The notes beneath the pieces are model-generated. The model saw only the letters and a list, made by a program, of their open reading frames with translations. It searched no databases and was not told the DNA's origin. Shown piece after piece: positions 2,988 through 59,470 of a stretch of DNA of 59,470 nucleotides; the stretch's first letter is position 1, and each line of letters opens with the position of its first letter. The stretch is from a bacterium (lineage in GTDB: Bacteria > Electryoneota > RPQS01). Location of the stretch: positions 1-59,470 of the forward strand of contig JAHJDG010000127.1 in NCBI GenBank assembly GCA_018812265.1. The letters are read 5' to 3'. Made by a program: the position numbers and the translations under genes.

Positions 2988-4034
2988 CTACAGATCCACC
3001 GACAAAGAATACCGCATCGTGTCGGTCAACGGGTGATTGGTTCCGGCCGTCAGATAGCTGAAATCGAAACGGTAGCTGCTGTACCGGAGCGAAACCCCAA
3101 AGGTATAGGGGAAGACCTTTCCGAGATCATCATTCCAGTATCCGGCGCGCAAACCCACGAGGGTCGAGTACCAATACTCGACTCCGACGTTCCAGATCAG
3201 CGACTTGACGAGGTCGCCGTCGCTCCAGGCCGTGAAGAGCGCTTCATAGAATTCATCGGAACGCCCTTTGTCGTCGCGTTTCACGAGCTCCTTGTTCACG
3301 TCGGAGGCGATAGTGAGCTGGTTGTATTCCTGATCAATGATCTTGTAGGCAAATCCCATCTTGAGATTGGTAGGCAACGGATCGGCCTGCGCCCGGTCAA
3401 TGTAGGCGACTTTCGGCCCCATGTTGGACAGGTTCGCACCCAGTGACAATCCCCTTAGGAAGGCTGCCCGATGGAGGATCCCGACGTCGGCGGCAATTGC
3501 CGTAGCCGTTCCGCTTCCCTTTTCCTCACCGGCTCCTTGATCCGATAAGTGGCTGTAGGCAAGTTTGAGTCCGACACCCATTGCAAGATGCGGATTGATT
3601 TCCGCGCCATAGGTTCCGGTCAGGGCGATTTCATAGGATGAGAAGGTGCCTTCATTGCGACCTTGTTCATCGGTGCGCTGCGTCTCGCCTAAATTGAGGA
3701 AGATGAGGTTGCCGCCGAAGGTTCCCCATTCGGGGACTTCATGCGTCGCGCTCATGTAGGCATAGTACAGATCGGACAGATTGAACTGCGGGAGCCAGCG
3801 GACGTACATCATAGTGAACTCCTGTCCATGCTGAAATCCCAAGCCAGCAGGATTCCACCAGGTTGCGCTGGCGTCGTCGGAAATGGCGACAAACGCCTCT
3901 CCCATTCCGGCCGGTCGCGCCCCGGGTGCGATTTTCAAGAACAGAAGCGTCGCCTGGCTGACGCTGGCAGCCTGCACAACGGCAGTGCACAGCAAGGCTC
4001 CCAGAATCAGCAGGCCTGTCACCGCTCGCTTCAT
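2988..4034 (-). CDS. porV: PorV/PorQ-family outer-membrane beta-barrel (T9SS shuttle-like)
   Basis: LFLKIAPGARPAGMGEAFVAISDDASATWWNPAGL N-terminal motif; signal peptide; GGAGG RBS before ATG at 4034 (the ORF track starts 10 codons early). Confidence 0.85.
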   Translation of the reverse strand: MKRAVTGLLILGALLCTAVVQAASVSQATLLFLKIAPGARPAGMGEAFVAISDDASATWWNPAGLGFQHGQEFTMMYVRWLPQFNLSDLYYAYMSATHEVPEWGTFGGNLIFLNLGETQRTDEQGRNEGTFSSYEIALTGTYGAEINPHLAMGVGLKLAYSHLSDQGAGEEKGSGTATAIAADVGILHRAAFLRGLSLGANLSNMGPKVAYIDRAQADPLPTNLKMGFAYKIIDQEYNQLTIASDVNKELVKRDDKGRSDEFYEALFTAWSDGDLVKSLIWNVGVEYWYSTLVGLRAGYWNDDLGKVFPYTFGVSLRYSSYRFDFSYLTAGTNHPLTDTMRYSLSVDL

Positions 4035-4070
4035 AGGTCCTCCAGTAGATGTATGTTCATTCACGAAAGT

Positions 4071-7000
4071 TCAGCGCAGAATCACGAGCTTGCCGGTACT
4101 CTCGGCGGAATAGCCACCCGCATGCTCCGCTTTGATCTTGTAGAAATAAACGCCGTTGGCGAGGAGATGCCCCTCGCGATCGCGGCCGTCCCACGGGCGA
4201 TCGGAATTGCTGTTGAAAGCGGGACCGGCCGTCCCCAGTCCGTCCATCTCATAGACCAGTTTTCCCGAGAGCGTGAAGAGGCGCAGACGCACGCGGCGTG
4301 TATTTTCCTGTGTCAGATAGTACGTGAAATAGGTGACGTCATTCATCGGATTCGGCCAGTTGTAGACGTCACGGATGGCATATCCGGCCTCACCGGCCGC
4401 TCCCACGGTGAAGGTGAGCGTGGTTTGGTTCAGGTTGTTGAACGAGTCCCAGGCTTCGACGGTCAGGCGATGTTCACCTTCGGCGAGCGGGCCAATTATT
4501 TTATCGAGGCTTCCCGACCTGTGGCTGTCGAGTTCGTAGTTGAAGAACGGCGTCAGGTCCTCGGTTTGCGCATCGTCAATCCGAACCGTGATCTTGTGCC
4601 CGACTTCGCCTGAAAGATTGACGCCCGAGGCATCCGTAATGGCAACATGAAGTTTGGGCGTCGCGCTGACCAAGTCTCCCGGGCGGAAGGAAGCCGTCTC
4701 CAGCCACACGCGGATCTCAGGGGCAATCGTGTCGGTTTCCGACGAGGCTTGAGCGGCAATCGGAATATGCTCGCGGATACCGATGCCATCGGCCGAGTCG
4801 GATTCGCTGTCGGCCTTGCCGAAAAAGTAGAGACTGATCTTGGCGTTATTTCCACCATAGCGAACATCGCGGGGAACCCGGAAGGTCACTGAGTCAAATC
4901 TGCCATTTTGAACCGTCGCCCGACCACGGAAGATGGCGTTGCCGGGAAGCCCGACGTAGTATGGTGGAAGATTGGTGTTGTCGCACCAGTAGTAGGCAAG
5001 TGAGTCCTCGGTATCGAATACTCGGACTTCCACCACGCCCTGGAAATCCGACCATACGGGTCCGCCGGAGGATCGGGACACCTCCCCACTTAAGGTAAAC
5101 AAGGACAAAGCGCGCAGAGAATCGTCGGCGACGGTGACCTGGGCGAAGTACTCGGGGGTAGCAAGCCGGAGCACCGGATCGCCAAATAAATGGTAGAGAT
5201 TCACATTGCTTACGCGGGTTGCCTTTCCGACCAGCAGGGCATGGCCGAAGCTCTGGCGCGAGGCCAGACCTTGGCGGAACAGCTCGCTGTAGAAGGCAAT
5301 GGTAAACGTATTGTTGGGTGCGATGTACGTGAATCGCGTTGCCGCGACACAGGCCACCGCGCCGTCTCGGGGATCGGCCAGCAGCTCTTCCGGAAAGCAG
5401 CGGACGAGCGGTTTGTCGAAAGCGCCCCACGAGCAGGTTGCGGCCAAGAACAACGGCCACATCCGATAGTTGTTGAGCAGATTGCGGTCACGTTCCATGA
5501 CAAACAGCTGTTCATCGGACCAAATCCGCTCGTTACCATGACCCGCGTAGTTAATGATCAGAGTCCCGCGGTTGATAGCTTCAATCAGATCCCGCGTCGC
5601 GTCCGGTTTGACCGGACCGACGGGCGTATGCTTCATCGGATAGAATATCTCATATAGTTTGTTGAATGTGAAGTACTCAGGCAGCACGTCGTTAATGAGA
5701 TTTTCAGCCTGTTGCGTGTGCTGAGTCTCGCTGCCGGACGTCCAGCAGGTGACTTTATTCTCATCATCAGCGGCAAAACTCGCCGTATTCTTCCACGGAC
5801 CGTAGAGCGGGTGGGTGGCATAGGCGATGGTCTTCGAGACTGCGGTTTCGACCTCTGCCCGGCTCTGGGAAGGCCAGCGTCCCGCCAACAGCCACGGCAA
5901 TTGAGAACTGTTGCTGAACAGAGTGAAGAAGTCGTCGGTGCTGTTCGAGTTCGATTCCCACGGCGGCATCCAGTTGGCGTCAGCACTGGACTCGATGTTT
6001 CGGTAGTCATAGTCGCCGTCCCCCACGAACAACACGTATTTCACGGTGTCGGTTCCGTCCGAGCCGTGCCAATTGAAATAGGCGTACTTCAGGAAATTGC
6101 GGATCGCCACCGGATCGCGGACGCCCCAGCCGAACTCATCGAAGACGTCGCCCAGACGAACACGGACGGCGGACAGAGGCTCCTCACGATAGGATTCATG
6201 GAACTGCTTTAGGGAATCAAGAGCATCGTACCACTCGTCGTAGGTAAGCAGAATGATGCCGGCCCCGTTCAGCGGATCGCGCAGTTGGGAATAATCCAAG
6301 TCCGGCAGAGTTTTCGCTCCCCGAAAGACGGGATTGCGAATGCGATCCGGATTCGACGCGAAGTAACGACGCGGTACACTCATATAGGAAGAATCAACCA
6401 GAGTACTTCCAATGGCGCGGCGAGGTTGAAGGGGATTGCTGACATCGAGAATGAGAGCATTTTCGTTCAAGCCGCTGATCACATAGCGGAATTGTCCGGT
6501 CAGAGTTCGCGGCGCGAAGAATTCCAGCATGCCGTTATTGGCCGTCAGATCCCGGTCGAACTCGATCTCGACATAGTTGACGTAGACGGTGGCGGCGCTG
6601 GAAGGAAGGGTCAGATTCTGCATCCGGACGATATTGGCTCCGGGCTGCAGAACTCCGGCAGGGATCGGAACGCTATAGGGCGCGGTCGTATAGTGAGCGC
6701 TGTCCACCAGAGTGCTGCCGACATAGACGTTGAAGTTCTGGCCGACGTATTCCCGTGAATCGAAATCGAGACGGAGGGTGCCGGCAGTGCCAAGGGCGCC
6801 CGGCAGATTCAGGGAAAAGGTCCGTTCCTGCTGCGCGCCAAACGACGCCATGAACCAAATGAGACCGGATTCCCGGTAATCACCCGGCGCCCGGATAAAG
6901 ATATCCTGATCAACGTATTCGCGTACCCGGGTTCGATTGATTGGCGTGCCGCCGCCGGCCGCGGTGATCGGCGGCATTCGGAGGCCGTCGGAACCCATCG

Positions 7001-7976
7001 GATCCACGCCGACGAAATAGACGTTCTCGGTGGAGAACGGACTATGATGTGCCAGCGCGTTCAGGTACGTTTCATCACAGTAGTCCGCGCCCTTCAGTCC
7101 GCGTCCGAAAAAGAGAATGCGGTCTTCGGCGTCGAATACGCCGTCGCCGTCCACGTCTTCCATATGGATCGCGTTTTCCTTCAATTCCTCATCCACGGGA
7201 GTATCGGGCGACGTCGGAAGCAACCGGCCGCCGTTACCAAAAAGCTTGATCTTCGCCGCCGGCTGACCCACCAGACCCGCACCCGCCAAGGAAGAACCGG
7301 TAACCTGATAGATACCCGTCTCCGTCACCGCCAGACGATAGAGGGCGAAAGTAGGCCAGGAGAAGTAATCATCAAACGCTGTTTGGCGCGGATACGGCTG
7401 CCACCACGTCGAGGCAGTCAAGCCGTTCACGGCAATCGCCGACAGAATATCCCCTTCGCGTCCCACCGGCGCGGTTGACGTCGGCGTGCCCTCAAAGAGT
7501 ACGGACAGATCGGCGGACTCGAGAATCTGTGAGCGGCGAGCGTCACCAATCTGCAGAAAAACCACCACTTGGGCAAGGCGGAAGCCCTTCCACTCCTCAG
7601 TACGCTCAAGTATCGCCCAGGAGTGTCCTACCTGTTTCGCCGCATCCCCGACCAGAACGGGAGTACCCGGCAGACCGCCGTCGGTATTCCTTGTTCGAAC
7701 CGCGCCAATACGGAGATGCGGAGTGGTTCCGGGAGGCACCACGACGTAGAATGCCCGAACCGGCTGAACGAACTTCTCGGCAATCCAATAGTCCGCGTCG
7801 TCCCATCCGGTCAGGATACCGTACGGATTGACCGTATCGGGAACCTGAAATGCCGGATCGCCCGGAGCATACGTCCAAGTGCACTCACGGCTATCGGAGC
7901 GGGCAACGTGCACACCCGCGAACGTCCAAGATGTCAGAAAGACCCCCGCCAGAGTGATGGCTATTATAACTCTCAT
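4071..7976 (-). CDS. porU: PorU-like C25 (gingipain-family) T9SS sortase with FlgD-Ig-type CTD
   Basis: 1301 aa; signal peptide; FDEFGWG-RDPVAIRNFLKY and LFVGDGDYDYR; catalytic dyad NYAGHG and AATCSWG intact; C-terminus YNWPNP...WDGRDREGHLLANGVYFYKIKA; directly upstream of porV. Confidence 0.85.
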   Translation of the reverse strand: MRVIIAITLAGVFLTSWTFAGVHVARSDSRECTWTYAPGDPAFQVPDTVNPYGILTGWDDADYWIAEKFVQPVRAFYVVVPPGTTPHLRIGAVRTRNTDGGLPGTPVLVGDAAKQVGHSWAILERTEEWKGFRLAQVVVFLQIGDARRSQILESADLSVLFEGTPTSTAPVGREGDILSAIAVNGLTASTWWQPYPRQTAFDDYFSWPTFALYRLAVTETGIYQVTGSSLAGAGLVGQPAAKIKLFGNGGRLLPTSPDTPVDEELKENAIHMEDVDGDGVFDAEDRILFFGRGLKGADYCDETYLNALAHHSPFSTENVYFVGVDPMGSDGLRMPPITAAGGGTPINRTRVREYVDQDIFIRAPGDYRESGLIWFMASFGAQQERTFSLNLPGALGTAGTLRLDFDSREYVGQNFNVYVGSTLVDSAHYTTAPYSVPIPAGVLQPGANIVRMQNLTLPSSAATVYVNYVEIEFDRDLTANNGMLEFFAPRTLTGQFRYVISGLNENALILDVSNPLQPRRAIGSTLVDSSYMSVPRRYFASNPDRIRNPVFRGAKTLPDLDYSQLRDPLNGAGIILLTYDEWYDALDSLKQFHESYREEPLSAVRVRLGDVFDEFGWGVRDPVAIRNFLKYAYFNWHGSDGTDTVKYVLFVGDGDYDYRNIESSADANWMPPWESNSNSTDDFFTLFSNSSQLPWLLAGRWPSQSRAEVETAVSKTIAYATHPLYGPWKNTASFAADDENKVTCWTSGSETQHTQQAENLINDVLPEYFTFNKLYEIFYPMKHTPVGPVKPDATRDLIEAINRGTLIINYAGHGNERIWSDEQLFVMERDRNLLNNYRMWPLFLAATCSWGAFDKPLVRCFPEELLADPRDGAVACVAATRFTYIAPNNTFTIAFYSELFRQGLASRQSFGHALLVGKATRVSNVNLYHLFGDPVLRLATPEYFAQVTVADDSLRALSLFTLSGEVSRSSGGPVWSDFQGVVEVRVFDTEDSLAYYWCDNTNLPPYYVGLPGNAIFRGRATVQNGRFDSVTFRVPRDVRYGGNNAKISLYFFGKADSESDSADGIGIREHIPIAAQASSETDTIAPEIRVWLETASFRPGDLVSATPKLHVAITDASGVNLSGEVGHKITVRIDDAQTEDLTPFFNYELDSHRSGSLDKIIGPLAEGEHRLTVEAWDSFNNLNQTTLTFTVGAAGEAGYAIRDVYNWPNPMNDVTYFTYYLTQENTRRVRLRLFTLSGKLVYEMDGLGTAGPAFNSNSDRPWDGRDREGHLLANGVYFYKIKAEHAGGYSAESTGKLVILR

Positions 7977-24178: not shown

Positions 24179-24971
24179 AACTCCGCCACACCCTCTCCAG
24201 ACGGGCGCGGACCTCTTCCGACCATGATTCGTATCCCACGGCCATGAGGGTCAATCCGTGTGCGGGAGCCTTGGGTCCCGCTTGCCGGACGTCTTCGGCC
24301 AAGAGAATTCTCTCAATATCCTGCGGATCCCGGCGACCGCGACCCACCTCTACAAACGTTCCCACCAGTAGCCGAACCATCCCGTGAAGAAAGCGATTGG
24401 CTGCGATACGGAACTCGAGGTGTGGACCGTGTTCCCGCCATTCCGCGTGATGCACCGTGGAGAGATAGTGAAGCTCTTTCTCGCTTTCATGCGCGAACGA
24501 TCGGAAAACTCGCTCTCCGACGATCAAGCCGGCAGCACGCTGCATCGGGACCGGATCCAGTCGAAATGGACACCACCACGAATACGAGCGACCGACGGCC
24601 AAGGGACGAAGTGCAATCCGATAGCGATAGGCTCGCCACTGCGCGCTATAGCGCGCATGGAAACGATCGTCCGCGATCCGGGTATCGGTAATTCGCACAT
24701 CCGGCGGCAGGAGGGAGTTTAGCGCCTTCGTGATGACTTCCGGCGGGCGCTCTCGATGAACCGTGAAGTGTGCCACTTGACCGAGCGCATGAACTCCGGT
24801 ATCCGTTCGCCCCGCCGCCATCACAACCGTCGGTTCGCCGAAAAGTTGGAGAACGGCGTTCTGCAAACAACCCTGCACCGTCCGCACGTCCGGTTGAACC
24901 TGCCAGCCGGCGAAGTCGGCTCCATCGTATTCGAGGTTGAGCCGGTATCGGGTTACAGCTCGCGAATGCAT
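24162..24971 (-). CDS. truA: tRNA pseudouridine(38-40) synthase
   Basis: EYDGADFAGWQ, AGRTDTGVHA, FHARYSA, RFLHGMVR; start uncertain (ATG 24971 chosen). Confidence 0.93.
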   Translation of the reverse strand: MHSRAVTRYRLNLEYDGADFAGWQVQPDVRTVQGCLQNAVLQLFGEPTVVMAAGRTDTGVHALGQVAHFTVHRERPPEVITKALNSLLPPDVRITDTRIADDRFHARYSAQWRAYRYRIALRPLAVGRSYSWWCPFRLDPVPMQRAAGLIVGERVFRSFAHESEKELHYLSTVHHAEWREHGPHLEFRIAANRFLHGMVRLLVGTFVEVGRGRRDPQDIERILLAEDVRQAGPKAPAHGLTLMAVGYESWSEEVRARLERVWRSYVEVP

Positions 24972-24991
24972 GGCCGGGCCGTGCTCACCGA

Positions 24992-25762
24992 CTACATCCA
25001 CGGTGCAATGGCACAAGTCAATACAAATATAACTGTTACAATAAGTTCGGCAGGCATCACCGGATGAGTGTGAAGCGCCGTTCGGACAATTCGAGGATCG
25101 TAGCCGCGTGCCTCCAGAGCGAAAGTCACATGATCTGCCCGTCGGAAGGCGGTCATGAGAAGGGAAAACAGCACTGTACGGACCTGCCGCAGTCGCGCAA
25201 CTCTCCCCCCCATCCGGTCAAGTCCCCGCGCTGCATGGGCCAATCGGATACGACGATACTCCTGCTCGAGAAATGGCACAAATCTAAGGGCCAGCGTTAC
25301 CACTAGTTCGGTCTGGGTCAAGGCGGAACGGCCGAGCTTCATACGACCGAGAAGCCGACCCACAGCCTTCCCGTACTGCTGAGGTGAATGCAAGTCGAAT
25401 AGTACAACCGTAACCGAGAGAATAAAAGCCAAACGCAGAGTGAAAAACACCGCCGCAAGAATACTCTCGGACGTAATTCCAATTCGAGGAAATTCTGCTA
25501 AACCAACCGAATCATGGCCACTTAGAAAGACATGGAATAGTCCGGTCAGCAGCAGAAATGGCCATAGGCGAAGAACCCCCCGTGTCACATTCCATACCGA
25601 AACTCTCATTGTGACAATAGCCAGCAACCATATTCCGGCCAGAAGAGTAAGCCCCTCAGCCCGGCTTATCAGAACCAAGCTCACGAGGAAAGCGATCCCG
25701 CCTCCGAGAAGACATAATGGATGGGGAGCCCGGCGCCGTCGCTGAGTAACTTGTGAGTTCAT
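24992..25762 (-). CDS. ecfT: Energy-coupling factor transporter transmembrane component T (CbiQ/EcfT family)
   Basis: Multiple TM helices; ALRFVP and both cytoplasmic ARG coupling motifs (HAARG, LEARG); directly upstream of truA. Confidence 0.8.
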   Translation of the reverse strand: MNSQVTQRRRRAPHPLCLLGGGIAFLVSLVLISRAEGLTLLAGIWLLAIVTMRVSVWNVTRGVLRLWPFLLLTGLFHVFLSGHDSVGLAEFPRIGITSESILAAVFFTLRLAFILSVTVVLFDLHSPQQYGKAVGRLLGRMKLGRSALTQTELVVTLALRFVPFLEQEYRRIRLAHAARGLDRMGGRVARLRQVRTVLFSLLMTAFRRADHVTFALEARGYDPRIVRTALHTHPVMPAELIVTVIFVLTCAIAPWM

Positions 25763-29514: not shown

Positions 29515-31509
29515 TTAGCCGTCGGTGGTACGCAGCTCACGCAACTCCTTTTCCCTGCGTACTTCCAGTTCCTCAAGCCGAAGCGCCGCCTGCTCCCAGA
29601 GCTCGATGAGAGAGGGCAATTCCTTCCGAATCCGATCATATTCCGCCATCAGCGACCGGCACCGTTCCGGGTCCCGATAGAGACTCTCATCGGCAAGTAC
29701 GGGTTCGATCTCAAGCTTACGGGACTCGTGGCGATCAATGTTTCGTTGAATCTTCTCCAGTTCCTTGCGCGCTTGTCGGATTCCCTCGGAGTGGCGGTTT
29801 CTCACGTCCGCTTCGAGGCGCTTACGTTCCCGTTTCTGATATCGTCCATCGGGAACCGGTTGCTCGGTTGCTTCGTGGAGACGACCTTCCCCCGATTGCA
29901 GAGCGTCTCCCGCCAAACCCTTCCGCTCGAGGTACTCCGACAAGCTCCCCGGATAATCCTGCAATCGTCCACCTTCCAACTCCATAATCCGTTCCACCAA
30001 ACGGTCAAGGAAATACCGATCGTGACTGACAACGATCAGGGTTCCGTCATACTCCTTGAGGGCACTCAGCAGCACGTCCTGTGAAGTCATGTCCAGATGA
30101 TTCGTCGGCTCATCAAGAATCAGCAGATTGGCCGGACGGAGAAGCATCTTGGCCAGGGCCAACCGAGCCTTCTCGCCGCCCGACAGAACCGATACTTTCT
30201 TGAGAACGTCGTCGCCGGAAAAGAGAAACGCGCCCAGAAGCTTCCGGAGTTCATTCTGGGTCGGTCCGTGCGATTCGGATTCCATCTCCTCAAGCACGGT
30301 GCGGCGGGGATCAAGGTGGAAGTCGGCTTCCTGAGCGAAATAATTAACCTCCACGTTGTGCCCGAGCTTGACGCTGCCGCCGGTCGGTTGCTCAATACCC
30401 GTAATCAGCCGGCAGAGCGTGGACTTGCCGGCCCCGTTGACGCCGACCAGAGCGACCTTCTGACCTCGCGCAAGCACCAGGTCCAGTTCGCTGAACACCG
30501 GAATGGAACCGTAGTGGTGATGCAGGCCGATGAATTCGAGAACGATTCGGCCGCTGGGCGGCGCGGGTGGAAAACGAAACCGAACTTGGCGGGCTGAACT
30601 GCTCAGCCTGACCTGTCCGAGTTTTTCGAGGGTCTTAATCCGGCTTTGTACTTGACTGGCCTTGGTCGCCTTGTATCGGAATCGTTCGACGAATCGCTCG
30701 ATCCGCTTGCGTTCGTCCGCGATTCGAGCCGCCTCCGCCTCCAACTGCTCCTCCCGCAGCGCGCGCGCCTTCTCGTAGGCCGAGTAATTCCCCTCGTAGA
30801 GGATCAGTTCCCCGTGGTCAATCTCGGCGATACCATCCGTAACGCTGTTCAGGAAACGGCGGTCATGGCTGACGACGATCAGCGCGCCATCGTAGCGAGT
30901 CAGATAGCCTTCCAACCACAACAGGGCGGGCAAGTCAAGATGATTCGTCGGTTCGTCGAGTAGGAGGAGATCGGGATCTTGCAGAAGAAGCTTGGCCAGA
31001 GCGATGCGCATCTGCCAGCCGCCGGAAAACTCTTCCACGCGACGTCCGTGGTCGGTATCGCGAAAGCCTAATCCCTTCAGCACCCGAGCCACTTTCGCTT
31101 CCGCCCGATAGCCCTCGAGATCCTCCCACCGGTGTTGAACCACGCCCAAACGTTCGATCAAATCCACGTCATCGGGAGTCCGGTCGAGTCTTCCGTGAAG
31201 CTCGGAAAGTTCAGATTCGAGTCGCGGCAAGTCCGGAAGACCGTTCCAGGCTTCGGCGAACAGCGTTCGACCGGAGTGAGTTACTCCTTCTTGAGGAAGA
31301 TATCCGGCGGCAAGATCGCGGGTTCGCTCCACCCGGCCGTCCGTAGGCTCAGTGACACCGAGCATGATCCTGAGTAGGGTGGTTTTGCCCGCTCCATTGG
31401 GACCGATGAGTCCGAATCGTTGACGCCGGAAGATGGACCACGACAGGGGTTTCAGCAGTATCTTCCCCGGTAAAACAAGGGCGACTTCATGAAGATGCAG
31501 CAGCCTCAT
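29515..31509 (-). CDS. ABC-F family ATP-binding protein
   Basis: Two ABC domains (GPNGAGKTT, FSGGWQMR, LLDEPTNHLD; GVNGAGKST, LSGGEK), no TM segments, C-terminal coiled coil. Confidence 0.93.
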   Translation of the reverse strand: MRLLHLHEVALVLPGKILLKPLSWSIFRRQRFGLIGPNGAGKTTLLRIMLGVTEPTDGRVERTRDLAAGYLPQEGVTHSGRTLFAEAWNGLPDLPRLESELSELHGRLDRTPDDVDLIERLGVVQHRWEDLEGYRAEAKVARVLKGLGFRDTDHGRRVEEFSGGWQMRIALAKLLLQDPDLLLLDEPTNHLDLPALLWLEGYLTRYDGALIVVSHDRRFLNSVTDGIAEIDHGELILYEGNYSAYEKARALREEQLEAEAARIADERKRIERFVERFRYKATKASQVQSRIKTLEKLGQVRLSSSARQVRFRFPPAPPSGRIVLEFIGLHHHYGSIPVFSELDLVLARGQKVALVGVNGAGKSTLCRLITGIEQPTGGSVKLGHNVEVNYFAQEADFHLDPRRTVLEEMESESHGPTQNELRKLLGAFLFSGDDVLKKVSVLSGGEKARLALAKMLLRPANLLILDEPTNHLDMTSQDVLLSALKEYDGTLIVVSHDRYFLDRLVERIMELEGGRLQDYPGSLSEYLERKGLAGDALQSGEGRLHEATEQPVPDGRYQKRERKRLEADVRNRHSEGIRQARKELEKIQRNIDRHESRKLEIEPVLADESLYRDPERCRSLMAEYDRIRKELPSLIELWEQAALRLEELEVRREKELRELRTTDG

Positions 31510-33263
31510 GATCGTCTTGCCAAAGCTACCGGTCGTTTTGCCGATTGCATGCGCGTGCCGCCCTTGCCCAGCGCTTCGAGGTACACGATGTATAGACCGG
31601 TCGGAACGAATTGCCCTCCATCGTCGCGGCCATCCCAGAGTATTTCGCCGGAAAAACCCGCCGCCGCGTTGTTGGCAAGTCTTCTCACCGCACGACCGCG
31701 AACGTCGTAAATCTTGACATCAATCCGAGAATCGCCATGTTCGAGCCGAAAGCGAATGAAGAGTACGTCTTCGTGTCCGTCTCCATCGGGCGAGAACGGA
31801 TTCGGCTCCAGTACAAGGAGTTGTCGAGGCATGCCCGTGGATGGCAGAGTCCGCGAGTTCGTTCGGCCCAGAGTCGAGCCTGTGCTGTCCAGCGATGCCG
31901 CCCAATTGAGGGGATCGTTGGACGCCGAGTACGCGGAGATGCGTTCGATGCTGACTCCCGCCTCACCGTTTCCCCACGATGGCCGATAGTCCACCCGGTC
32001 CACAAGCTGATGATGGGAGTCGAACAACACCAGTGAATCGCCGCTGTTGTTCAAGGTCACTTCGCCGGAATTCCAGATCATTACCGGCACGGTCGGCGGA
32101 ATGTTCTCGAACAACACTTGCGAATCGGCGGCCAACACGATGAATTGCATCGGCGGCAGTACAATCTCCGGCAGGAGCTGCAACCGCGACGTATCGAGCA
32201 GCGCCGTTCCGTCGCCGAACCGCCAACCTGCGAGATTCCACGACAGTACGCTCGCATTGTAGAGCTCGATCCACTCGCTCCGTTGGGACTCGGGCTGATA
32301 CATGATCTCGTTGATAACCAGCCAACTCTGAGCACCGGATGTACCGATGGCAATTGCCCACTCATCATTGCTGTGGCGATCATCCCGCCCGGACAGTTTC
32401 GCCACAAACGTGTGAATGGATTCATCAGGCAATGTCCAGTCGCGGCGAAACTCCTCCGAGTCACCGGGAGACAGAATCGCCGTAAGCCACCGATTCAGCA
32501 CGTGGAGCGAGTCCGTTGTTCCACTGGGCTCTATCCGTTCGTAGAGAAATAAGGAATCTCGCATCGGTTGGAGTCCGACGTTTTCCACTCGCACGGTAAT
32601 CTCGATTGTCTCCCCCACGCGCGCGTCAACAGGTGCGTAGGTCAGGGATGTAATCGCCAAGTCTTGTTCGGGAGGCGTTACGCTGTTTCGCCCTCCCGGA
32701 GTTCCCCCCAGAGTCACGGCTTCCGTCCAGTTGGAGCTGCCGTCTCCGGCAGTCGGCAGAATCTTTTCCTCTGATTGACCTTGCTCATTACCGAGAGTGT
32801 AGGTGTACGAAGAGACCGTCTGTCCTTGCGGACTGATCAGCGACACCGTCTCGGCCGTGCTGTTGGATAGACCACGGCTGCCAAACGTCGAGTTGTCTAT
32901 GGTAACGACGAGCGCGTTCTCCGGAATGCGACCGTCATAGGTCGTGCTTCCATTCTCGAAATAGTCCGGGTCGAGAATGAGAACGTACCGATTGGACTGC
33001 ACGAGAAGACCGTGCTCGAGGGCGATAACTCGATCCGTATCCGCTCCATCAGTTACCCGCCATCCGTCCAAGTTCACTGCATGGGGGCTATTATTGAAGA
33101 GCTCGATGTACTCATCATCGTTCTCATCGCCGCTCGGATTGTACATGATCTCATTCAGCGTCAGCCCCGGCGCCTCACTGGATAGCAATAGAAAACCGAT
33201 GATCACAGAGATCGCAATACTACGCAAGTGATATATCCTCGATGTGACGGACTTTCGGTTCAT
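31506..33263 (-). CDS. Exported protein with two lamin-tail domains, a CARDB-like Ig domain and a T9SS-type CTD
   Basis: Signal peptide; LNEIMYNP..EYIELFN and INEIMYQP..EWIELYN; DLAITSL...TITVRVENVG; PNPFSPDGDGHED...WDGRDDGG..VPTGLYIV. Confidence 0.8.
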   Translation of the reverse strand: MNRKSVTSRIYHLRSIAISVIIGFLLLSSEAPGLTLNEIMYNPSGDENDDEYIELFNNSPHAVNLDGWRVTDGADTDRVIALEHGLLVQSNRYVLILDPDYFENGSTTYDGRIPENALVVTIDNSTFGSRGLSNSTAETVSLISPQGQTVSSYTYTLGNEQGQSEEKILPTAGDGSSNWTEAVTLGGTPGGRNSVTPPEQDLAITSLTYAPVDARVGETIEITVRVENVGLQPMRDSLFLYERIEPSGTTDSLHVLNRWLTAILSPGDSEEFRRDWTLPDESIHTFVAKLSGRDDRHSNDEWAIAIGTSGAQSWLVINEIMYQPESQRSEWIELYNASVLSWNLAGWRFGDGTALLDTSRLQLLPEIVLPPMQFIVLAADSQVLFENIPPTVPVMIWNSGEVTLNNSGDSLVLFDSHHQLVDRVDYRPSWGNGEAGVSIERISAYSASNDPLNWAASLDSTGSTLGRTNSRTLPSTGMPRQLLVLEPNPFSPDGDGHEDVLFIRFRLEHGDSRIDVKIYDVRGRAVRRLANNAAAGFSGEILWDGRDDGGQFVPTGLYIVYLEALGKGGTRMQSAKRPVALARRS

Positions 33264-51039: not shown

Positions 51040-51735
51040 TCAACCTTTGCGCCGCGCGGCCATCACCTTCCTGGCCATTTCCACCACATGCTCGACCTGA
51101 TCCCCGATCGTGAGATGTGTCGTGTCAAGCTCGATGGCATCTTGCGCCTTGCGAAGAGGACTGTGCGCGCGCGTTGAATCCCGATCATCGCGAGTCCGAA
51201 TGGCGGATTCAACCTCGTCAAGGCTCTGCTCGATGCCACGACCAAGCATCTCCTTGCGTCGCCGCTTCGCGCGCGTCTTGACGTCCGCGACCAAGAATAT
51301 CTTCACGTCGGCGTCGGGAAAAACCACCGTGCCGATGTCCCGGCCGTCCAACACGATCCCGCCCGACTTGCCGAGTTCGCGTTGCCATCCGACGAGGTGC
51401 TCGCGAACGCTCGGATCTTCCGACACCGGACCCACCCACAGCGATACTTCGGGCGAACGGATCTCATCGGTCACGTCTTCATCGTCGAGAAGGATTCTTG
51501 TTTGTGACCGATCTTCCTTCTGGCTGACCGTCGTCGCACGCAGAAGGGCAGCCACTTTGCCCGCGTCGGTCAATTCGATTCCGCAACGGAGCATCTTGAG
51601 AGCGACGGCACGATACATCGCACCCGTATCCACGTGCATGTATCCGAGCCGTTGAGCGACCAACTTGGCGGTCGAGGATTTCCCGCTGCTGGCCGGGCCG
51701 TCTATGGCGATCACTAATCCGGACGACCGACTCAC
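51040..51735 (-). CDS. cmk: Cytidylate kinase
   Basis: IAIDGPASSGKSS, DTGAMYR, DGRDIGTVVFPDA, RDDRD. Confidence 0.96.
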   Translation of the reverse strand: MSRSSGLVIAIDGPASSGKSSTAKLVAQRLGYMHVDTGAMYRAVALKMLRCGIELTDAGKVAALLRATTVSQKEDRSQTRILLDDEDVTDEIRSPEVSLWVGPVSEDPSVREHLVGWQRELGKSGGIVLDGRDIGTVVFPDADVKIFLVADVKTRAKRRRKEMLGRGIEQSLDEVESAIRTRDDRDSTRAHSPLRKAQDAIELDTTHLTIGDQVEHVVEMARKVMAARRKG

Positions 51736-53435
51736 GATTTGATTCGACCACCCTTCTCTTCTTCGATGAAGATGTGCGTGACGATCTTTCCGGCAAAGAA
51801 CTCTTCTCCCTCACCCAACATGCACCGTTCCCACGGAAAGGCGGACGAAGTGTCTTCCGCCGCTTCGCCCGTGGTAGCCGCGTAGAAGTCGGCGATGCGC
51901 TGCTGCCACTTCTTCATGTTGGACGGTCGCAGATCCAGCCAGCCCTTGTCCGCCCATTCATCTATGCAGCCGTCCCACATCGGAATTTCATTGCTGCCGG
52001 AGTAGGCCGGGATTTTCACTTCCGGGCCACGCAGAATGCTCTTGCCGTCGGGAAGAAGAATGGGAACGCCGATCGAGATTATCGTGGCCCGCAGCTTCGA
52101 ATCCTTCCGGAGAATGCTCCAAAGCTCTTCGGAGACGACCTCCGGTCTGATGTTCACCGACGACGACGGATCCGGATACGCCCGTTTGATCAGGTGCGCC
52201 TCATAAAGCAGTTTGGAAAGGTGCGGCGGGCCGAGCATTTCAAACGCGACACTCGAAATCCCGTGTTCATGCTCGAGACGTTGCATCTCTCCCAAGGCTG
52301 CGCCCCGCAGAATGGCGGCTCGATACGACGGCCCCATCGCGACCGCGTCCAACGCTCCCACGACGTCGAAACCGCTGTTGCCGCCCTCGATTTCCCACAA
52401 CACGGCATCGGCGATTTCCTCGGGAGTTACGAACTCCATTTGCTGTGCCGCCGTGATCGTGAAAAACTCCCCGGCCGAGAAGATTCCGTTTTCTCCCGTG
52501 TCAATAAACACCGATTTCAGATTATCTCCCGTTGATTCGCCGCTGTCGGGGTGATTCCTTACGAACGTTCCGCCCAGAAGCTCGGGCTTCTCGGGACTGC
52601 AATCGTAGAGCGGAATGGGACGGCCGCCCCGAAGCACTTCGCCGTACGCGATTCTCTTCCAGGCGATTGCCGCCGCCGGTTTGACCTCCTTGACGTACGG
52701 ACAACCCGGTGTGCGCGCCATCAGAAACAGCAACATGGTATGCGCGCCGGCCATGGAAGATTTGGCGAGGAGTTGCGCCGACGGCTTTTCTTCGGAATGT
52801 GTGTACGGAATATTGAAACCCATGCCGCCGGTGCCGGTCGTCCCCACTTTAATGTACGTGTGAACCCCCGTCTGACTGGACGATTCCGCCAAGACCTGAA
52901 TGTGGCGGATCAGCTGCGGGACATAGACCGTTCCGCAAAAACGCTCCATCCGGTCAAGGATAGAATCGTCCACCGGAGTCCGCTTGGCGTGCATTTCGAA
53001 GATACTCTTCACGTCGTAGTACGCCGAATAGATGTCCTGATAGGCGAATCCCGTTGCGGCATTCACGCAATCCACGATAACGTCGGGACGGTGCTCCGCA
53101 ATAAGACGATGCAGGAAGAACACCTTCAGCCGTTCGGGCGTCAGCTTCTCGAAAACGTCTTCGATGAATTGCCGTCGAAGCTGCGGTTTGCTCATAACTT
53201 CGCGACGAGGAATGTCTTTGAAATCCTCGCGTACGAAGATGTCTCCCCACGCCGGGGTCATGGTGACCTTGGGAAACTCGGCTTCGAGCTCGCGGACCGC
53301 CTCCTCGGCCTCCGACTGTCGAAGCGAAAGCACGATAATCTTCGACGGCCCGCGCGAAAGAATTCGACGACAGACCGCCATGCCAACAAGCCCCCACCCG
53401 CCCAGCACCATCACGGTTGAATTTCTCAGCATCAT
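51732..53435 (-). CDS. Uncharacterised 567-aa protein with an N-terminal NAD(P)-binding Rossmann (atypical SDR-like) domain
   Basis: VLGGWGLVG (GxxGxxG), PDVIVDCVNAA, KVGTTGTGG; overlaps the scpB stop and the cmk start. Confidence 0.7.
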   Translation of the reverse strand: MMLRNSTVMVLGGWGLVGMAVCRRILSRGPSKIIVLSLRQSEAEEAVRELEAEFPKVTMTPAWGDIFVREDFKDIPRREVMSKPQLRRQFIEDVFEKLTPERLKVFFLHRLIAEHRPDVIVDCVNAATGFAYQDIYSAYYDVKSIFEMHAKRTPVDDSILDRMERFCGTVYVPQLIRHIQVLAESSSQTGVHTYIKVGTTGTGGMGFNIPYTHSEEKPSAQLLAKSSMAGAHTMLLFLMARTPGCPYVKEVKPAAAIAWKRIAYGEVLRGGRPIPLYDCSPEKPELLGGTFVRNHPDSGESTGDNLKSVFIDTGENGIFSAGEFFTITAAQQMEFVTPEEIADAVLWEIEGGNSGFDVVGALDAVAMGPSYRAAILRGAALGEMQRLEHEHGISSVAFEMLGPPHLSKLLYEAHLIKRAYPDPSSSVNIRPEVVSEELWSILRKDSKLRATIISIGVPILLPDGKSILRGPEVKIPAYSGSNEIPMWDGCIDEWADKGWLDLRPSNMKKWQQRIADFYAATTGEAAEDTSSAFPWERCMLGEGEEFFAGKIVTHIFIEEEKGGRIKS

Positions 53436-55968: not shown

Positions 55969-55997
55969 AAGATACAATATTCTCACGAAAATAGCAA
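55969..55997 (-). promoter_or_regulatory. Candidate sigma70 promoter for trpS-scpAB
   Basis: TTGCTA (55997-55992), 17-nt spacer, TATCTT (55974-55969). Confidence 0.45.
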
Positions 55998-56020
55998 CCG
56001 GATCGCCGCTGGCGATCCGG
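55988..56020 (-). terminator. Intrinsic terminator after the propeller gene
   Basis: Perfect 10-bp stem CCGGATCGCC/GGCGATCCGG with a 3-nt loop, then TTGCTATTTT. Confidence 0.65.
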
Positions 56021-56031
56021 GCCAAATTCGA

Positions 56032-57330
56032 CTATTTCATCAGCACAATGGGGTAGGCTCGGCCCCCCCGACCATCATCCAAGATTGCATAATAAGTTCC
56101 GGTTGCCAATGGATTTACTCGATCTCGATCCCACTGCCACCCTACTTCTTGCCGGCCCGTTCCCACAGGTAGGCGTGCCACAATCTGTCCTATGCTGTTA
56201 TATATTAAGATGATAGATGGTTCTGTCAGGCTCGCAGAAAGCCGAAACCTCACGCTGCCATTCGACGGGTTTGGATAGGCCTCACGGATGGCACTTTCAC
56301 GGGCTACGAGGCGAGGTACAACTGGCTGAATCGGACTCTCACCGCCGTAAAGTACCATCTGTCCGGGTCCATCGGAAACCGGATAACGGTTAAAAAGAGC
56401 GCCCGCGTTACTCCGATGTTCGACCTCATCCGTCATCGCGCAAGACACGAAGAACGATCCGTCCGCCAATGCCTCAACGTCGGTGGCGCCACTGCCCACT
56501 CGAATCGGTGACGCCTGATCGTTCAGAACGGTAAGATCGTCGAGCCGATAGCGGTAGACCTCGCCGTGATCTCCCCAACCGCCCGCCGCCAGCAGCGCCT
56601 GCCCGCCGCCGAAACTGATGTTGCTGGGGGATCCTCCGACTTCCACCACCGCTTCCGTCTGCCGATTCCCCAAGTCCACGACGTGAATCTCCCCGCCCAC
56701 CGTTCCGTAGTTTCCCGTGCACACCACGTGCAGACGATCCCATTCGTCCACCGCCGCCGTCTGCGGATTCATTCCCACTCTAAGGCTGTCGAGTAGATGA
56801 AAATCGCCGCGATTATAGATCATCACCACGCCCGGCCCATACTGGCCAGACGGCAAATAGCGCGTGAGACAAACGTACACGCGATCCCCATGAGCGACGA
56901 TTCCCTGGGGAGCGACGCCTACGTAGACATTACCCACAACTTGCCCACTTGATAGTCGGATGAGCAAGACGTTATTCGAAATCCAGTTCGTAACCGCCAG
57001 CGTGTCAGAGTTGAGCGTCGCCGCCGAATGGGGATTCACTCCGCCGGTCGTGGGAATGTCCCGCAGCGTCACATCGGTTTCAGCGTCAATCTCTTGAACG
57101 GTATTGAGCAGGGAATTGGTGACGAACAGACGGCTGCCGTGCGCGATGATATCGTTGCAGCCGTATCCCAGATCGAGCACGTGCGGATTCACCGCGCCCG
57201 TTTCCAAGCGGATTTCGGCCAGGGATTCGTCTCCATATTGCACAACGTACAACCGATCCTGCCCGTCGGCCATCGAGACGATCAGCAGCAGGAAAAGAAG
57301 CGTCCGGTGCAGTCTGATCTCGCAAGTCAT
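56032..57330 (-). CDS. YncE/BtuG-like beta-propeller with T9SS type A CTD
   Basis: ATGA overlap with the TonB receptor stop; signal peptide without a lipobox; propeller repeats (GVAPQGI, GMNPQTA, GGSPSNI, GSGATDV); CTD AYPNPSN...IYNSIGQIV...LATGTYY...IVLMK. Confidence 0.78.
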   Translation of the reverse strand: MTCEIRLHRTLLFLLLIVSMADGQDRLYVVQYGDESLAEIRLETGAVNPHVLDLGYGCNDIIAHGSRLFVTNSLLNTVQEIDAETDVTLRDIPTTGGVNPHSAATLNSDTLAVTNWISNNVLLIRLSSGQVVGNVYVGVAPQGIVAHGDRVYVCLTRYLPSGQYGPGVVMIYNRGDFHLLDSLRVGMNPQTAAVDEWDRLHVVCTGNYGTVGGEIHVVDLGNRQTEAVVEVGGSPSNISFGGGQALLAAGGWGDHGEVYRYRLDDLTVLNDQASPIRVGSGATDVEALADGSFFVSCAMTDEVEHRSNAGALFNRYPVSDGPGQMVLYGGESPIQPVVPRLVARESAIREAYPNPSNGSVRFRLSASLTEPSIILIYNSIGQIVARLPVGTGRQEVGWQWDRDRVNPLATGTYYAILDDGRGGRAYPIVLMK

Positions 57331-59470
57331 GATACCGTCGCGCGAATACCGCCGTACCATTGCCGAAGCGGCATCGGTGCGTGCCGTACGATTCGATAAT
57401 TCGAGTCGAGCGCGTTCTCGCAGCCGACCGTGGATTGAAGCTCGACGGAACCGATTTGGAAAGTATAGGAACTCTGGAGGTCCATTACTTCGTACTTGCT
57501 GAGCCATTTCGAATTCGTTTCAAGGATCGGCCGCGCGGCTACCCAGCGATAGGTGGCGACGACGTGAATGCCTGTATGATCGAATACAAAGCCTGCGCGA
57601 TGAGTTCGCGGAGCACGGTAGGTGAGGTATTTGCCGCCCGTGTTGCGATCATCCGTGTCATCGCGCGCTTCCGTCCAGTTGACGCCCGTGTTCAGGCGAA
57701 ACCTGCCCTGCCAGAGACTCTGCTCAAAGAATAGGTCCAGCGTCTGAATGTGCGCTTGATGGAGATTGAATGGCTTCCAGTAGTTGTCGAAGGTTCGTCG
57801 CCAGACGATCAGGTCCCGCACGCGCTGTTCCGAAGCCGACGCCTCGCAACGGGTGACGTTGGACGTGGCGGTCTCAAACGTGAGCCGCCCCGTCCATTCA
57901 TCCGAGGTCTCCGCCTCAAGATCGGGATTCCCGCGCGTGGCCATGTCATCCAACCAGAACAGCGAATACAACGAGGGCGCGCGATACGATTTGCCCCGCG
58001 AAGCGAATCCGGCGATTCGGTAGGATGGGCGATATTCCGCCGTCAGTCCCACTCGCGGCAGAAGTACGCGATCTTCCCCGAACGTCTCCCATCGCAGACC
58101 GGACTCCAGCACCAGTGAAGAGAAGTTGCTTCTCGTCGCGAGCAATCGCACGTCGGTCTTGCACCAGAGCGCTCCGCTCGCTCGCTCCGCCGTTCCTCCG
58201 GCAATCTGAATACCCGCGAGGCGATCTTCTCCGGCGGAAGCGCCCCCTTGAACCCTCGTTCGCGGCAGTTCGACGAACGCGGAGAATTCGCCGCTCCAAC
58301 GCTGCGACCTCTCATCCGTCCTTAGCACACGGCCATAGCCGTCGTCGTTCGTGTACTCTCGCCGGCTTCGATCATACCCGCCGTTTCCCCGAATCGTTAC
58401 GGAAGAAAAATGACGCACAGCCCGCAACGCAATCGCTTCCTGCTGGCTGCTCTGCCGCGCGCGCGGTGTGAGTTGCGGCGCAAGATAGCCGGGCATGCCG
58501 CGGGCCTGCCGATCGGCCAGACCGGTGAGCTCGACGGATCCGGCCGCACTCGATCCTGTTTGTGCCTTGATTAGGAGCTGATCGCGCGTAACGTCATTGT
58601 TAACTCGATGACAGGTCTGGCCAAGATCGGGCGTAAACGATCCCGTGCCGTCATCCTCCGATATCCGGTACTCGAAATCACCGGGGCCGTTCGTGCGAGC
58701 AAAACTCAGCAAACTCGCGAGTGGGCCGGTTTGACCGGAACCGAAAAAACTCGTCCGCCCGTACGTGGAGTGCATTTCCGCCTCGGCAGAATAGGTGGCA
58801 GTGTTTTGCGGACGCCGAGTCGTGACGTCAATTACACCCCCGATAGCCTCACCGCCGAGTTCGGTCTGACCGCCCCGATAAACCGCCACGTTCTCCACCC
58901 ACTCCAGAGGAACCGACGACAGATCCGCCTCGCCGCTCCCCGCATTTTGAATTCGCCTTCCATCCACTCGCACCAGAACCTGTCCCGGCTGCGATCCGCC
59001 GATACTCGCGGTCACCGGCGATCCGAGAGTCCCGTCGCTCCGCACATCGAGGCCAACCTCCGAATGCAGAAAACCCGCCAAGTCGCGCGCGGAGCTTGTC
59101 TCAATATCACGACGATGAAAGATTCTTGTCGGCGCGGACAATGACAGTCCTTCGACAGTTACCTCGGGTAGTACTGCGGCTAAACGATGGAGTGTCAACA
59201 ACAATTGCAGTTGCTCACCGCTCGCAAGATCGAACGTTGTGTCACGTGAAACACACCGATTCGCCGACACTTCGAGACGATACCTGCCGCACGTCAGTCC
59301 GTCAAACGAGACGCAACCGCCCGCATCCAACGACTGAGCAATGCCTACCGGCCACAACACGGCCGTTCCGCCGGGAGGGACCGCTTGCCGATCACTCGTG
59401 ACGCGAACGAATACCGCGCCGCCCGTCTGTGCCACCGACGACGCCACGAGCAGAAACACCCATAGAAACG
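57327..59470 (-). CDS. TonB-dependent receptor, BtuB (cobalamin)-like; 5' end outside the window
   Basis: Frame open to the edge (..FLWVFLLVASSVAQ). Ig-like N domain, LPEVTV TonB box, plug ASIGGSQPGQVLVRVDG...DLSSVPLEWVENVAVYRGG..GEAIGGVIDVTT, RGNPDLEAETS, C-terminal ENALD..Y...PMPLR. Confidence 0.85.
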   Translation of the reverse strand, partial: FLWVFLLVASSVAQTGGAVFVRVTSDRQAVPPGGTAVLWPVGIAQSLDAGGCVSFDGLTCGRYRLEVSANRCVSRDTTFDLASGEQLQLLLTLHRLAAVLPEVTVEGLSLSAPTRIFHRRDIETSSARDLAGFLHSEVGLDVRSDGTLGSPVTASIGGSQPGQVLVRVDGRRIQNAGSGEADLSSVPLEWVENVAVYRGGQTELGGEAIGGVIDVTTRRPQNTATYSAEAEMHSTYGRTSFFGSGQTGPLASLLSFARTNGPGDFEYRISEDDGTGSFTPDLGQTCHRVNNDVTRDQLLIKAQTGSSAAGSVELTGLADRQARGMPGYLAPQLTPRARQSSQQEAIALRAVRHFSSVTIRGNGGYDRSRREYTNDDGYGRVLRTDERSQRWSGEFSAFVELPRTRVQGGASAGEDRLAGIQIAGGTAERASGALWCKTDVRLLATRSNFSSLVLESGLRWETFGEDRVLLPRVGLTAEYRPSYRIAGFASRGKSYRAPSLYSLFWLDDMATRGNPDLEAETSDEWTGRLTFETATSNVTRCEASASEQRVRDLIVWRRTFDNYWKPFNLHQAHIQTLDLFFEQSLWQGRFRLNTGVNWTEARDDTDDRNTGGKYLTYRAPRTHRAGFVFDHTGIHVVATYRWVAARPILETNSKWLSKYEVMDLQSSYTFQIGSVELQSTVGCENALDSNYRIVRHAPMPLRQWYGGIRATVS
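59238..59253. other. parS centromere-like site inside the TonB receptor gene
   Basis: TGTGTCACGTGAAACA, a 15/16 match to the parS palindrome TGTTTCACGTGAAACA. Confidence 0.7.

Follow-up and report, generated by a model that had tools for sequence, protein, structure and literature searches.

In the current study, the last two genes of the 59,470-nucleotide (nt) contig JAHJDG010000127.1 (the window, i.e. the whole stretch of DNA that was analysed), from an uncultured biofilm/groundwater bacterium, were examined. They encode a TonB-dependent receptor resembling BtuB and a beta-propeller protein resembling BtuG, the lipid-anchored lid of BtuB in Bacteroides thetaiotaomicron. The favoured interpretation, to which a probability of roughly 0.6 is given, is that the two genes close a corrinoid-uptake operon which lies across the window edge, and that the propeller is a BtuG-type capture protein, delivered by the type IX secretion system (T9SS), which works with the adjacent receptor under the control of a cobalamin riboswitch.

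The propeller gene (56032-57330, minus strand) encodes a protein of 432 amino acids (aa), comprising a signal peptide, the propeller, a short flexible linker and an 85-residue C-terminal domain (CTD). An AlphaFold model, built with a 37-sequence alignment, had a predicted local distance difference test (pLDDT) score of 91 and showed seven blades (residues ~25-330), disorder at residues 333-343 and a seven-strand immunoglobulin (Ig)-like domain. When the model was compared with the PDB using Foldseek, ranks 2-17 were occupied entirely by BtuG1, BtuG2 and BtuG3 (E ~1e-16, 13-18% identity), rank 1 being 1l0q, an S-layer YVTN propeller of archaeal origin which also has a PKD domain and covered both parts of the model. 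For propeller-only BtuG entries the target-normalised template modelling (TM) score was 0.73-0.80, with a root-mean-square deviation of ~3-5 A over ~340 columns. Below these ranks, the first protein other than BtuG was hydrazine synthase beta, about four orders of magnitude weaker.

For comparison at the level of whole alignments, the BtuG1 propeller sequence was rebuilt from printed alignments and its relatives were gathered, all of which carry DUF5074 (PF16819). Comparison of the two alignments by hhalign gave 99.6% (E 3.8e-24) over 299 columns, i.e. the entire propeller. The profile of the propeller family matched BtuG1 at 4e-17 and BtuG2 and BtuG3 at ~4e-8, and an intermediate lipoprotein, P0047, matched the propeller family as well as the BtuG side. 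Taken together, the profile homology, the fold and this intermediate indicate that the propeller is a remote BtuG homologue, lying outside Pfam DUF5074 as that model stands. The first-pass annotation, which had called the propeller BtuG-like and had proposed a Foldseek comparison with BtuG2, is supported in this respect. A pair of the E. coli YncD/YncE type was also considered as the closest model and was rejected: the Pfam family YNCE (PF21783) scored 16.2 bits against a cut-off of 27.1, and YncE, with a Foldseek E value of 1e-10, stood behind all BtuG entries. In databases, homologues of the propeller carry generic names ("T9SS type A sorting domain-containing protein", "YVTN family beta-propeller protein" or "DNA-binding beta-propeller fold protein YncE"), and annotators would gain a name for propellers now filed under such labels.

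The two highest-scoring NCBIfam models for the receptor were both BtuB models, namely TIGR01779 (TonB-B12; 119 bits, E 1.9e-34) and NF007926 (84 bits), with haem and siderophore receptor models scoring behind them. In a sequence search of the PDB the best matches were E. coli BtuB for the plug and B. thetaiotaomicron BtuB1 and BtuB3 for the barrel. The barrel family PF00593 is on record for the C-terminal part of the gene and for one orthologue. By best match the receptor is BtuB-like, as had been claimed, and falls short of a certified BtuB. Counted from its first GTG, the open reading frame (ORF) spans 57327..59459; upstream of this, the frame up to base 59470 reads ...FLWVFLLVASSVAQ, which represents the receptor signal peptide (its hydrophobic core and the region of cleavage). 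Because the frame is open through base 59470, the signal peptide is cut off by the window end. The last 40 bases of the window had no exact match among the metagenome contigs scanned; the only other contig with the gene included just 726 nt of the receptor, and Logan contigs from the source runs stopped at the same base as the window or only 14 nt beyond.

The overlap of the receptor stop codon with the propeller start codon, described earlier, is present as ATGA (Table 1), and the tight junction is kept in relatives. A longer propeller ORF of 491 aa, starting at 57507, was discarded: it runs 180 nt into the receptor gene, and its extension lacks a signal peptide and is not shared by homologues. 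A terminator-like hairpin begins 12 nt past the propeller stop codon, followed by trpS, scpA and scpB, and is likely to mark the end of the operon.

What lies beyond the window edge can be judged from relatives. Homologues of the propeller were found at 47-61% identity, and the four that were examined with their flanks share synteny with the window on either side, rplS lying upstream and trpS, scpA, scpB and cmk lying downstream. In all four, the operon consists of a small membrane protein resembling energy-coupling factor (ECF) S-components, a ~600-aa protein without a Pfam match, the receptor and the propeller, in this order, and a cobalamin riboswitch (RF00174; 88-94 bits, gathering score 31.5) lies between rplS and the first operon gene. 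Among more diverse loci, nine of ten had an Rfam riboswitch match on the same strand and upstream. An nhmmer model built from these Rfam matches detected it in the same position in 40 of the 57 loci whose upstream flank spanned 5 kb or more. Two elements, a cobalamin riboswitch and btuFCD, had been put forward as possibly lying upstream of the window. The former is present in each of the four syntenic orthologous loci, the window itself stopping before the site; the latter was not borne out, as the relatives' operons contain neither btuF nor btuCD and have the ECF-S-like gene in that place.

This first operon gene (e.g. L005:5520-6077; loci of the present study are cited by L numbers) lies directly behind the riboswitch and belongs to the ECF S-component family (PF12822 above cut-off). 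An identity as BtuM was considered and rejected, there being no PDB sequence match to BtuM and no invariant cysteine. The BtuM family is defined by that cysteine (PMC6072759), so the protein falls outside BtuM in the strict sense. It may work with an ECF module, with an EcfT/CbiQ-family gene as partner, rather than alone. Within the window, a gene of the EcfT/CbiQ family (24992-25762, minus strand) lies beside truA (24162-25016), with no EcfA gene adjacent.

The ~600-aa protein encoded after the ECF-S-like gene and ahead of the receptor (L005:6074-7891, L002:5111-6916, L003:6054-7838, L007:6086-7861) had no Pfam or NCBIfam match. Its model (pLDDT 88) has the plug and barrel of a TonB-dependent transporter, the closest fold being E. 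coli BtuB (target-normalised TM 0.80-0.82). The idea that this "hypothetical" protein might be a new B12 binder was dropped on account of this fold, and the riboswitch operons of the relatives would therefore have two tandem receptors.

The evidence for delivery by the T9SS comes from both ends of the propeller and from other genes of the window. The precursor begins with MTCEIRLHRTLLFLLLIVSMA, followed by the cleavage site and DGQDRLYVV, consistent with a signal peptide cleaved by signal peptidase I (SPI). Since the sole early cysteine is residue 3, ahead of the hydrophobic core, no lipobox is present, in agreement with the earlier reading. At the C-terminus, the T9SS tail model PF18962 (Por_Secre_tail) matched 36 of 37 aligned homologues (best E 1.2e-10), compared with three of 37 for the type B model. 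The motifs AYPNPFN and IxIYNxxGQ and a terminal K/R are conserved in homologues. Together with the Ig-like model, these matches make the type A CTD, which had been predicted from the window alone, a solid assignment at the family level, as far as profiles and motifs can tell.

The window also encodes a PorU (the T9SS sortase and C-terminal signal peptidase) of 1301 aa, which carries a CTD-like tail of its own, and a PorV/PorQ-family protein directly downstream of porU. From these two genes it follows that the organism has machinery for handling type A CTDs, which fits the PorU/PorV route proposed in the first-pass annotation. The pair shows that an uncultured KSB1-like bacterium has a T9SS. 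Another protein of the window that is likely to be T9SS cargo (585 aa) is encoded at 31506-33263 (minus strand); it contains a T9SS signal domain of the CHU_C type (type B-like) as well as two Lamin Tail Domains.

In a survey of one genome per species, 80 propeller loci were collected from KSB1, Calditrichota, Zixibacteria, Cloacimonadota, Ignavibacteria, LCP-89, WOR-3, Eisenbacteria, Gemmatimonadota and GN15, i.e. about ten phyla of the Fibrobacteres-Chlorobi-Bacteroidetes (FCB) group. The propeller gene lay directly 3' of a TonB-dependent receptor gene in 52 of 70 loci. Linkage to both riboswitch and receptor was observed in KSB1-like bacteria, Calditrichota, Zixibacteria, Ignavibacteria, LCP-89, Eisenbacteria, Gemmatimonadota and one GN15 locus. 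In Cloacimonadota and WOR-3 the propeller was receptor-linked, with a riboswitch in few loci only.

The most informative finding was that the CTD and the lipobox were mutually exclusive in this family. A CTD was combined with an SPI signal lacking a lipobox in 53 propellers and with a lipobox in none, and a lipobox without a CTD was found in 27 (25 by script and two by eye), with a linker of ~15-25 residues after the cysteine, as in BtuG2 (Fisher p ~6.5e-22, uncorrected for phylogeny). Three propellers had neither feature, two of them clearly with extra N-terminal domains, and six had an unclassified tail of 60-80 residues (four with an SPI signal, two with a lipobox). At least seven anchor switches were counted on a rough neighbour-joining tree, for example between the LCP-89 neighbours L018 (CTD) and L035 (lipobox). 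In the lipobox forms read by eye, two or more acidic residues followed the cysteine in 16 of 23, resembling the surface-export signals of Bacteroidota. The CTD and the lipobox thus behave as alternative answers to one need, which would be placement at the cell surface. The suggestion that the propeller represents a different architecture can accordingly be extended to the family, where the CTD replaces the lipid anchor (53:0 vs 0:27).

Some loci of the survey deserve separate mention. Nine encode a lipoprotein and a CTD propeller in one operon (L021, L023, L026 and L067 in tandem; L058, L075, L077, L080 and L083). In the dual loci of Eisenbacteria and Gemmatimonadota the lipoprotein copy adjoins the receptor and the CTD copy lies elsewhere in the operon, and in those of Cloacimonadota and WOR-3 the receptor and propeller genes are separated by a gene for an extra CTD protein of ~420 aa (e.g. 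L021:4720-5973). The homologue P0043 (448 aa) represents a third architecture: its signal is lipobox-like (LAFGC), it lacks a CTD and it carries an additional Big_7 Ig domain at the N-terminus. Six loci (L009, L014, L016, L017, L047 and L051) come from metagenome-assembled genome records labelled "uncultured Alphaproteobacteria bacterium" and carry the FCB-type operon with T9SS tails; these labels are probably wrong, as the loci are syntenic with KSB1-like contigs.

Based on these data, the following course of events is proposed. Corrinoid scarcity would allow the riboswitch, which is seen in the orthologues and expected just beyond the window, to permit transcription of the operon. The propeller precursor would cross the inner membrane by Sec and be cut by SPI. 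The T9SS would then recognise the type A CTD, and PorU would remove it at the cell surface and may tether the new C-terminus of the propeller to anionic lipopolysaccharide. There, the acidic propeller would capture a corrinoid in its central cavity, presumably while resting on the receptor's extracellular loops in the way that BtuG rests on BtuB, and hand the ligand over for TonB-driven import.

The same homology, riboswitch and T9SS evidence would be expected if the propeller were instead shed into the medium after T9SS export and CTD removal, acting as a diffusible, hemophore-like corrinoid carrier which returns to the receptor. Outside Porphyromonas, release is the fate of many cargoes with a type A CTD, and the dual loci, with a lipoprotein copy beside the receptor and a CTD copy apart in Eisenbacteria and Gemmatimonadota, suggest a division of labour. 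In the clade of the window, however, the CTD form is the sole propeller and holds the BtuG position, the stop/start overlap suggests co-production at a ratio of 1:1, and a PorU sortase is present. The repeated exclusive swaps with lipid anchors argue for an equivalent, cell-attached location. The ATGA overlap and these swaps therefore favour a cell-bound lid, which may be held by a PorU-made anchor or only through docking to the receptor, and release is considered unlikely, while still deserving attention.

Whether the ligand is a corrinoid was judged from the contacts known for BtuG. In BtuG2, residues contacting B12 include E55, G56, F58, Q93, N107, S131, R135, W149, W194, S195, Q219 and W272, and in BtuG1 the contacts are F60, R141, R244, E249 and Y290 (PMC10404256; bioRxiv 10.1101/2024.02.16.580637). 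Even between BtuG1 and BtuG2, only ~60% of contacts are common (bioRxiv 10.1101/2024.02.16.580637). These positions were placed on the window propeller by hhalign sequence mapping. BtuG1 R141, R244 and E249 correspond to H101, T205 and G209, respectively. The most conserved segments of the propeller family, RLHVVC-TGNY in blade 5 and AAGGW in blade 6, coincide with the segments bearing BtuG1 R244 and Y290. The net charge of the propeller domain (-21) resembles the negative binding face of BtuG (PMC6143338, PMC10404256). Binding of a corrinoid by the propeller is plausible from these comparisons, and the binding mode probably differs from that of BtuG.

Several results weigh against a T9SS-delivered corrinoid lid. 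By the same mapping, the SEGLF/EGxF loop (BtuG2 E55, G56 and F58; BtuG1 F60) is a five-residue deletion in the propeller family, and only about two of the six named BtuG1 contacts are similar, i.e. Y290 (W252) and residue 139 (N99). No match to PF16819 (DUF5074) was found in the window propeller at E <= 0.01, and one of 37 homologues matched (1.3e-5); by sequence profile, the archaeal S-layer propeller 1l0q outscores BtuG. The receptor is far under the BtuB equivalog cut-offs (119 vs 599.7 bits for TIGR01779 and 84 vs 836 for NF007926). The CTD of the window propeller itself is below the curated cut-offs (20.4 bits vs 27 for PF18962 and 19.2 vs 23 for TIGR04183). Rfam gave no match of any kind, a riboswitch included, in the window, which ends inside the receptor signal peptide, short of the expected site. 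Finally, 17 of the 57 loci, mostly from Cloacimonadota, WOR-3 and Caldithrix, had no riboswitch within 5-7 kb in the nhmmer search (L038, L044, L053, L055-L057, L059-L061, L063, L074, L023, L026, L067, L068, L071 and L066), and an Rfam run on ten Cloacimonadota, WOR-3 and Caldithrix loci confirmed this absence; within the whole set of 17, Rfam covered 11 loci and confirmed it in each.

Part of these results, namely the poorly conserved BtuG site with its deleted contact loop, the S-layer propeller as best profile match and the subset of loci without a riboswitch, would also suit a generic YVTN surface protein which binds another ligand (e.g. another tetrapyrrole or a metal) or serves as a structural cap or as a shield against phage or colicin. 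Such a role is nevertheless improbable. The family occurs in cobalamin-riboswitch operons across at least nine phylum-level groups, and chance placement of a riboswitch within 7 kb would be ~1%, given how many riboswitches genomes usually have. Moreover, conservation is concentrated at the places of the BtuG B12 contacts, and the domain is strongly acidic.

A periplasmic carrier, in which the Ig-like domain does not serve secretion and the propeller, periplasmic like YncE, shuttles corrinoid from the receptor to the ECF-S-like transporter in place of BtuF, would account for the lack of btuF and btuCD in the relatives' operons, for the structural relationship to YncE and for the FlgD_ig Pfam score of the window propeller (24.5), slightly above its Por_Secre_tail score (20.4), but is very improbable given the T9SS tail in nearly all homologues, the PorU and PorV-family genes of the window, the exclusive alternation of the CTD with lipoboxes that mostly resemble surface-export signals and Foldseek matches to BtuG about six orders of magnitude better than to YncE.

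In comparison with the BtuB-BtuG complexes of B. thetaiotaomicron (8BLW, 8BM0, 8P97), the proposed T9SS-delivered lid shares the seven-bladed fold, the ancestry seen as whole-domain profile homology, the acidic domain and, in the orthologues, the operon logic of a cobalamin-riboswitch locus with the propeller gene directly 3' of a BtuB-like receptor. What is new concerns the export and anchoring device, the pocket residues, the phyla and the inner-membrane partner. The propeller has a Sec/SPI signal and a C-terminal type A domain in place of the lipobox and lipid anchor of BtuG. It is under the DUF5074 threshold, with low identity to BtuG, the EGxF loop deleted and most named contacts changed, and its family has an invariant motif of its own, HVVCTGNY. 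The inner-membrane partner in the relatives' operon is ECF-S-like rather than BtuFCD. BtuG has been reported, by BlastP, to be exclusive to Bacteroidetes, where it helps gut Bacteroides to win the competition for B12 (PMC6143338), whereas the propeller family is present in KSB1-like bacteria and other FCB phyla.

With T9SS type A cargo such as the gingipain RgpB, the propeller shares the Sec signal, an Ig-like CTD of ~85 aa with TIGR04183/PF18962 motifs and the accompanying PorU and PorV-family genes. Unlike the usual cargo (proteases, adhesins and glycoside hydrolases), it would be the nutrient-capture partner of a TonB-dependent receptor. In the literature searched, BtuG and the T9SS were named together only in work on the BAM complex (the machinery for beta-barrel assembly), and no link between the T9SS and B12 capture was found.

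Three other systems offer partial parallels. In E. coli YncD/YncE, a receptor gene also lies beside a gene for a YVTN-type propeller of related fold, but the structural match is much weaker than that to BtuG (1e-10 vs 1e-16) and the orthologues of the present locus are cobalamin-riboswitch operons. YncE is periplasmic and has no CTD. The HasA-HasR hemophore system, a secreted carrier encoded beside its receptor, is comparable only if the propeller is released, and differs in fold, secretion system and ligand. BtuM (6FFV) and ECF-CbrT resemble the relatives' operons in having a small protein of the ECF S-component family next to a btuB-like gene, whereas the relatives' protein lacks both a sequence match to BtuM and the invariant cysteine.

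A wider and more tentative proposal, unlikely as a whole, is that the lipid anchor and the T9SS domain are interchangeable modules which place a BtuG-type lid on the B12 receptor across the FCB group, with the CTD lid tethered through its C-terminus and the corrinoid bound differently, possibly by His/Cys-cobalt ligation as by Cys80 in BtuM. A different mode of binding in the pocket of the CTD form would follow from the missing EGxF loop and the invariant HxxC-TGNY motif at the cavity. If the proposal is true, the T9SS, with PorU as sortase, would be a working part of vitamin B12 uptake.

On the distribution of the propeller family seen in the survey, B12 capture by a receptor with a lid would date far back in the FCB group and extend beyond Bacteroidetes. 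Repeated swaps between lipid anchor and T9SS tail on the propeller would tie this secretion system to vitamin acquisition, and the paired lipoprotein and CTD forms would provide a natural experiment on surface-protein targeting in phyla without cultured models.

Table 1. Features of the receptor-propeller locus and of the T9SS genes in the window.
Feature	Position	Strand	Basis
PorV/PorQ-family outer-membrane protein	2988..4064	-	NF033709 285 bits (cut-off 90); PorV equivalog 206 bits (cut-off 250)
PorU, T9SS sortase / C-terminal signal peptidase	4071..7976	-	NF033707 654 bits (cut-off 420), model positions 7-1095 of 1095; Peptidase_C25 261 bits
Terminator-like hairpin with T-rich tail	55988..56020	-	10-bp stem with 8 GC pairs, then TTGCTATTTT; consensus match only
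Predicted type A T9SS sorting domain (C-terminal; Ig-like fold of 7 strands)	56035..56289	-	PF18962, TIGR04183, motifs, model
Flexible linker between propeller and CTD, expected region of PorU cleavage	56290..56325	-	pLDDT <50 at residues 333-343; site expected from the T9SS paradigm
Seven-bladed YVTN-type beta-propeller, BtuG-like, net charge -21	56326..57267	-	AlphaFold model, Foldseek, hhalign
Propeller SPI signal peptide, residues 1-21 (SMA/DGQ), no lipobox	57268..57330	-	Sequence
ATGA stop/start overlap of receptor and propeller	57327..57330	-	Read from sequence: receptor TGA 57329-57327, propeller ATG 57330-57328
TonB-dependent receptor, BtuB-like	57327..59470	-	ORF, frame still open at 59470; orthologues ~720 aa
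Receptor Plug domain	58833..59138	-	PF07715 48.2 bits (cut-off 23.9), residues 108-209
Receptor N-terminal carboxypeptidase-regulatory-like extension (weak)	59190..59327	-	PF13620 17.8 bits, L003 orthologue 26.8 bits; neither reaches the cut-off of 32.3

Two further genes of the window were recorded. A GWxTD-domain protein (TIGR04514, 82 bits) is encoded at 10368-11789 (minus strand), and genes for a response regulator and an ABC ATPase lie between it and porU. An ORF of 567 aa at 51732-53435 (minus strand) had no Pfam match at 1e-5; its position between scpB and cmk is kept in all relatives, and its orthologues are labelled PF27054 (Beta_methylindole_red_C) in precomputed tables.

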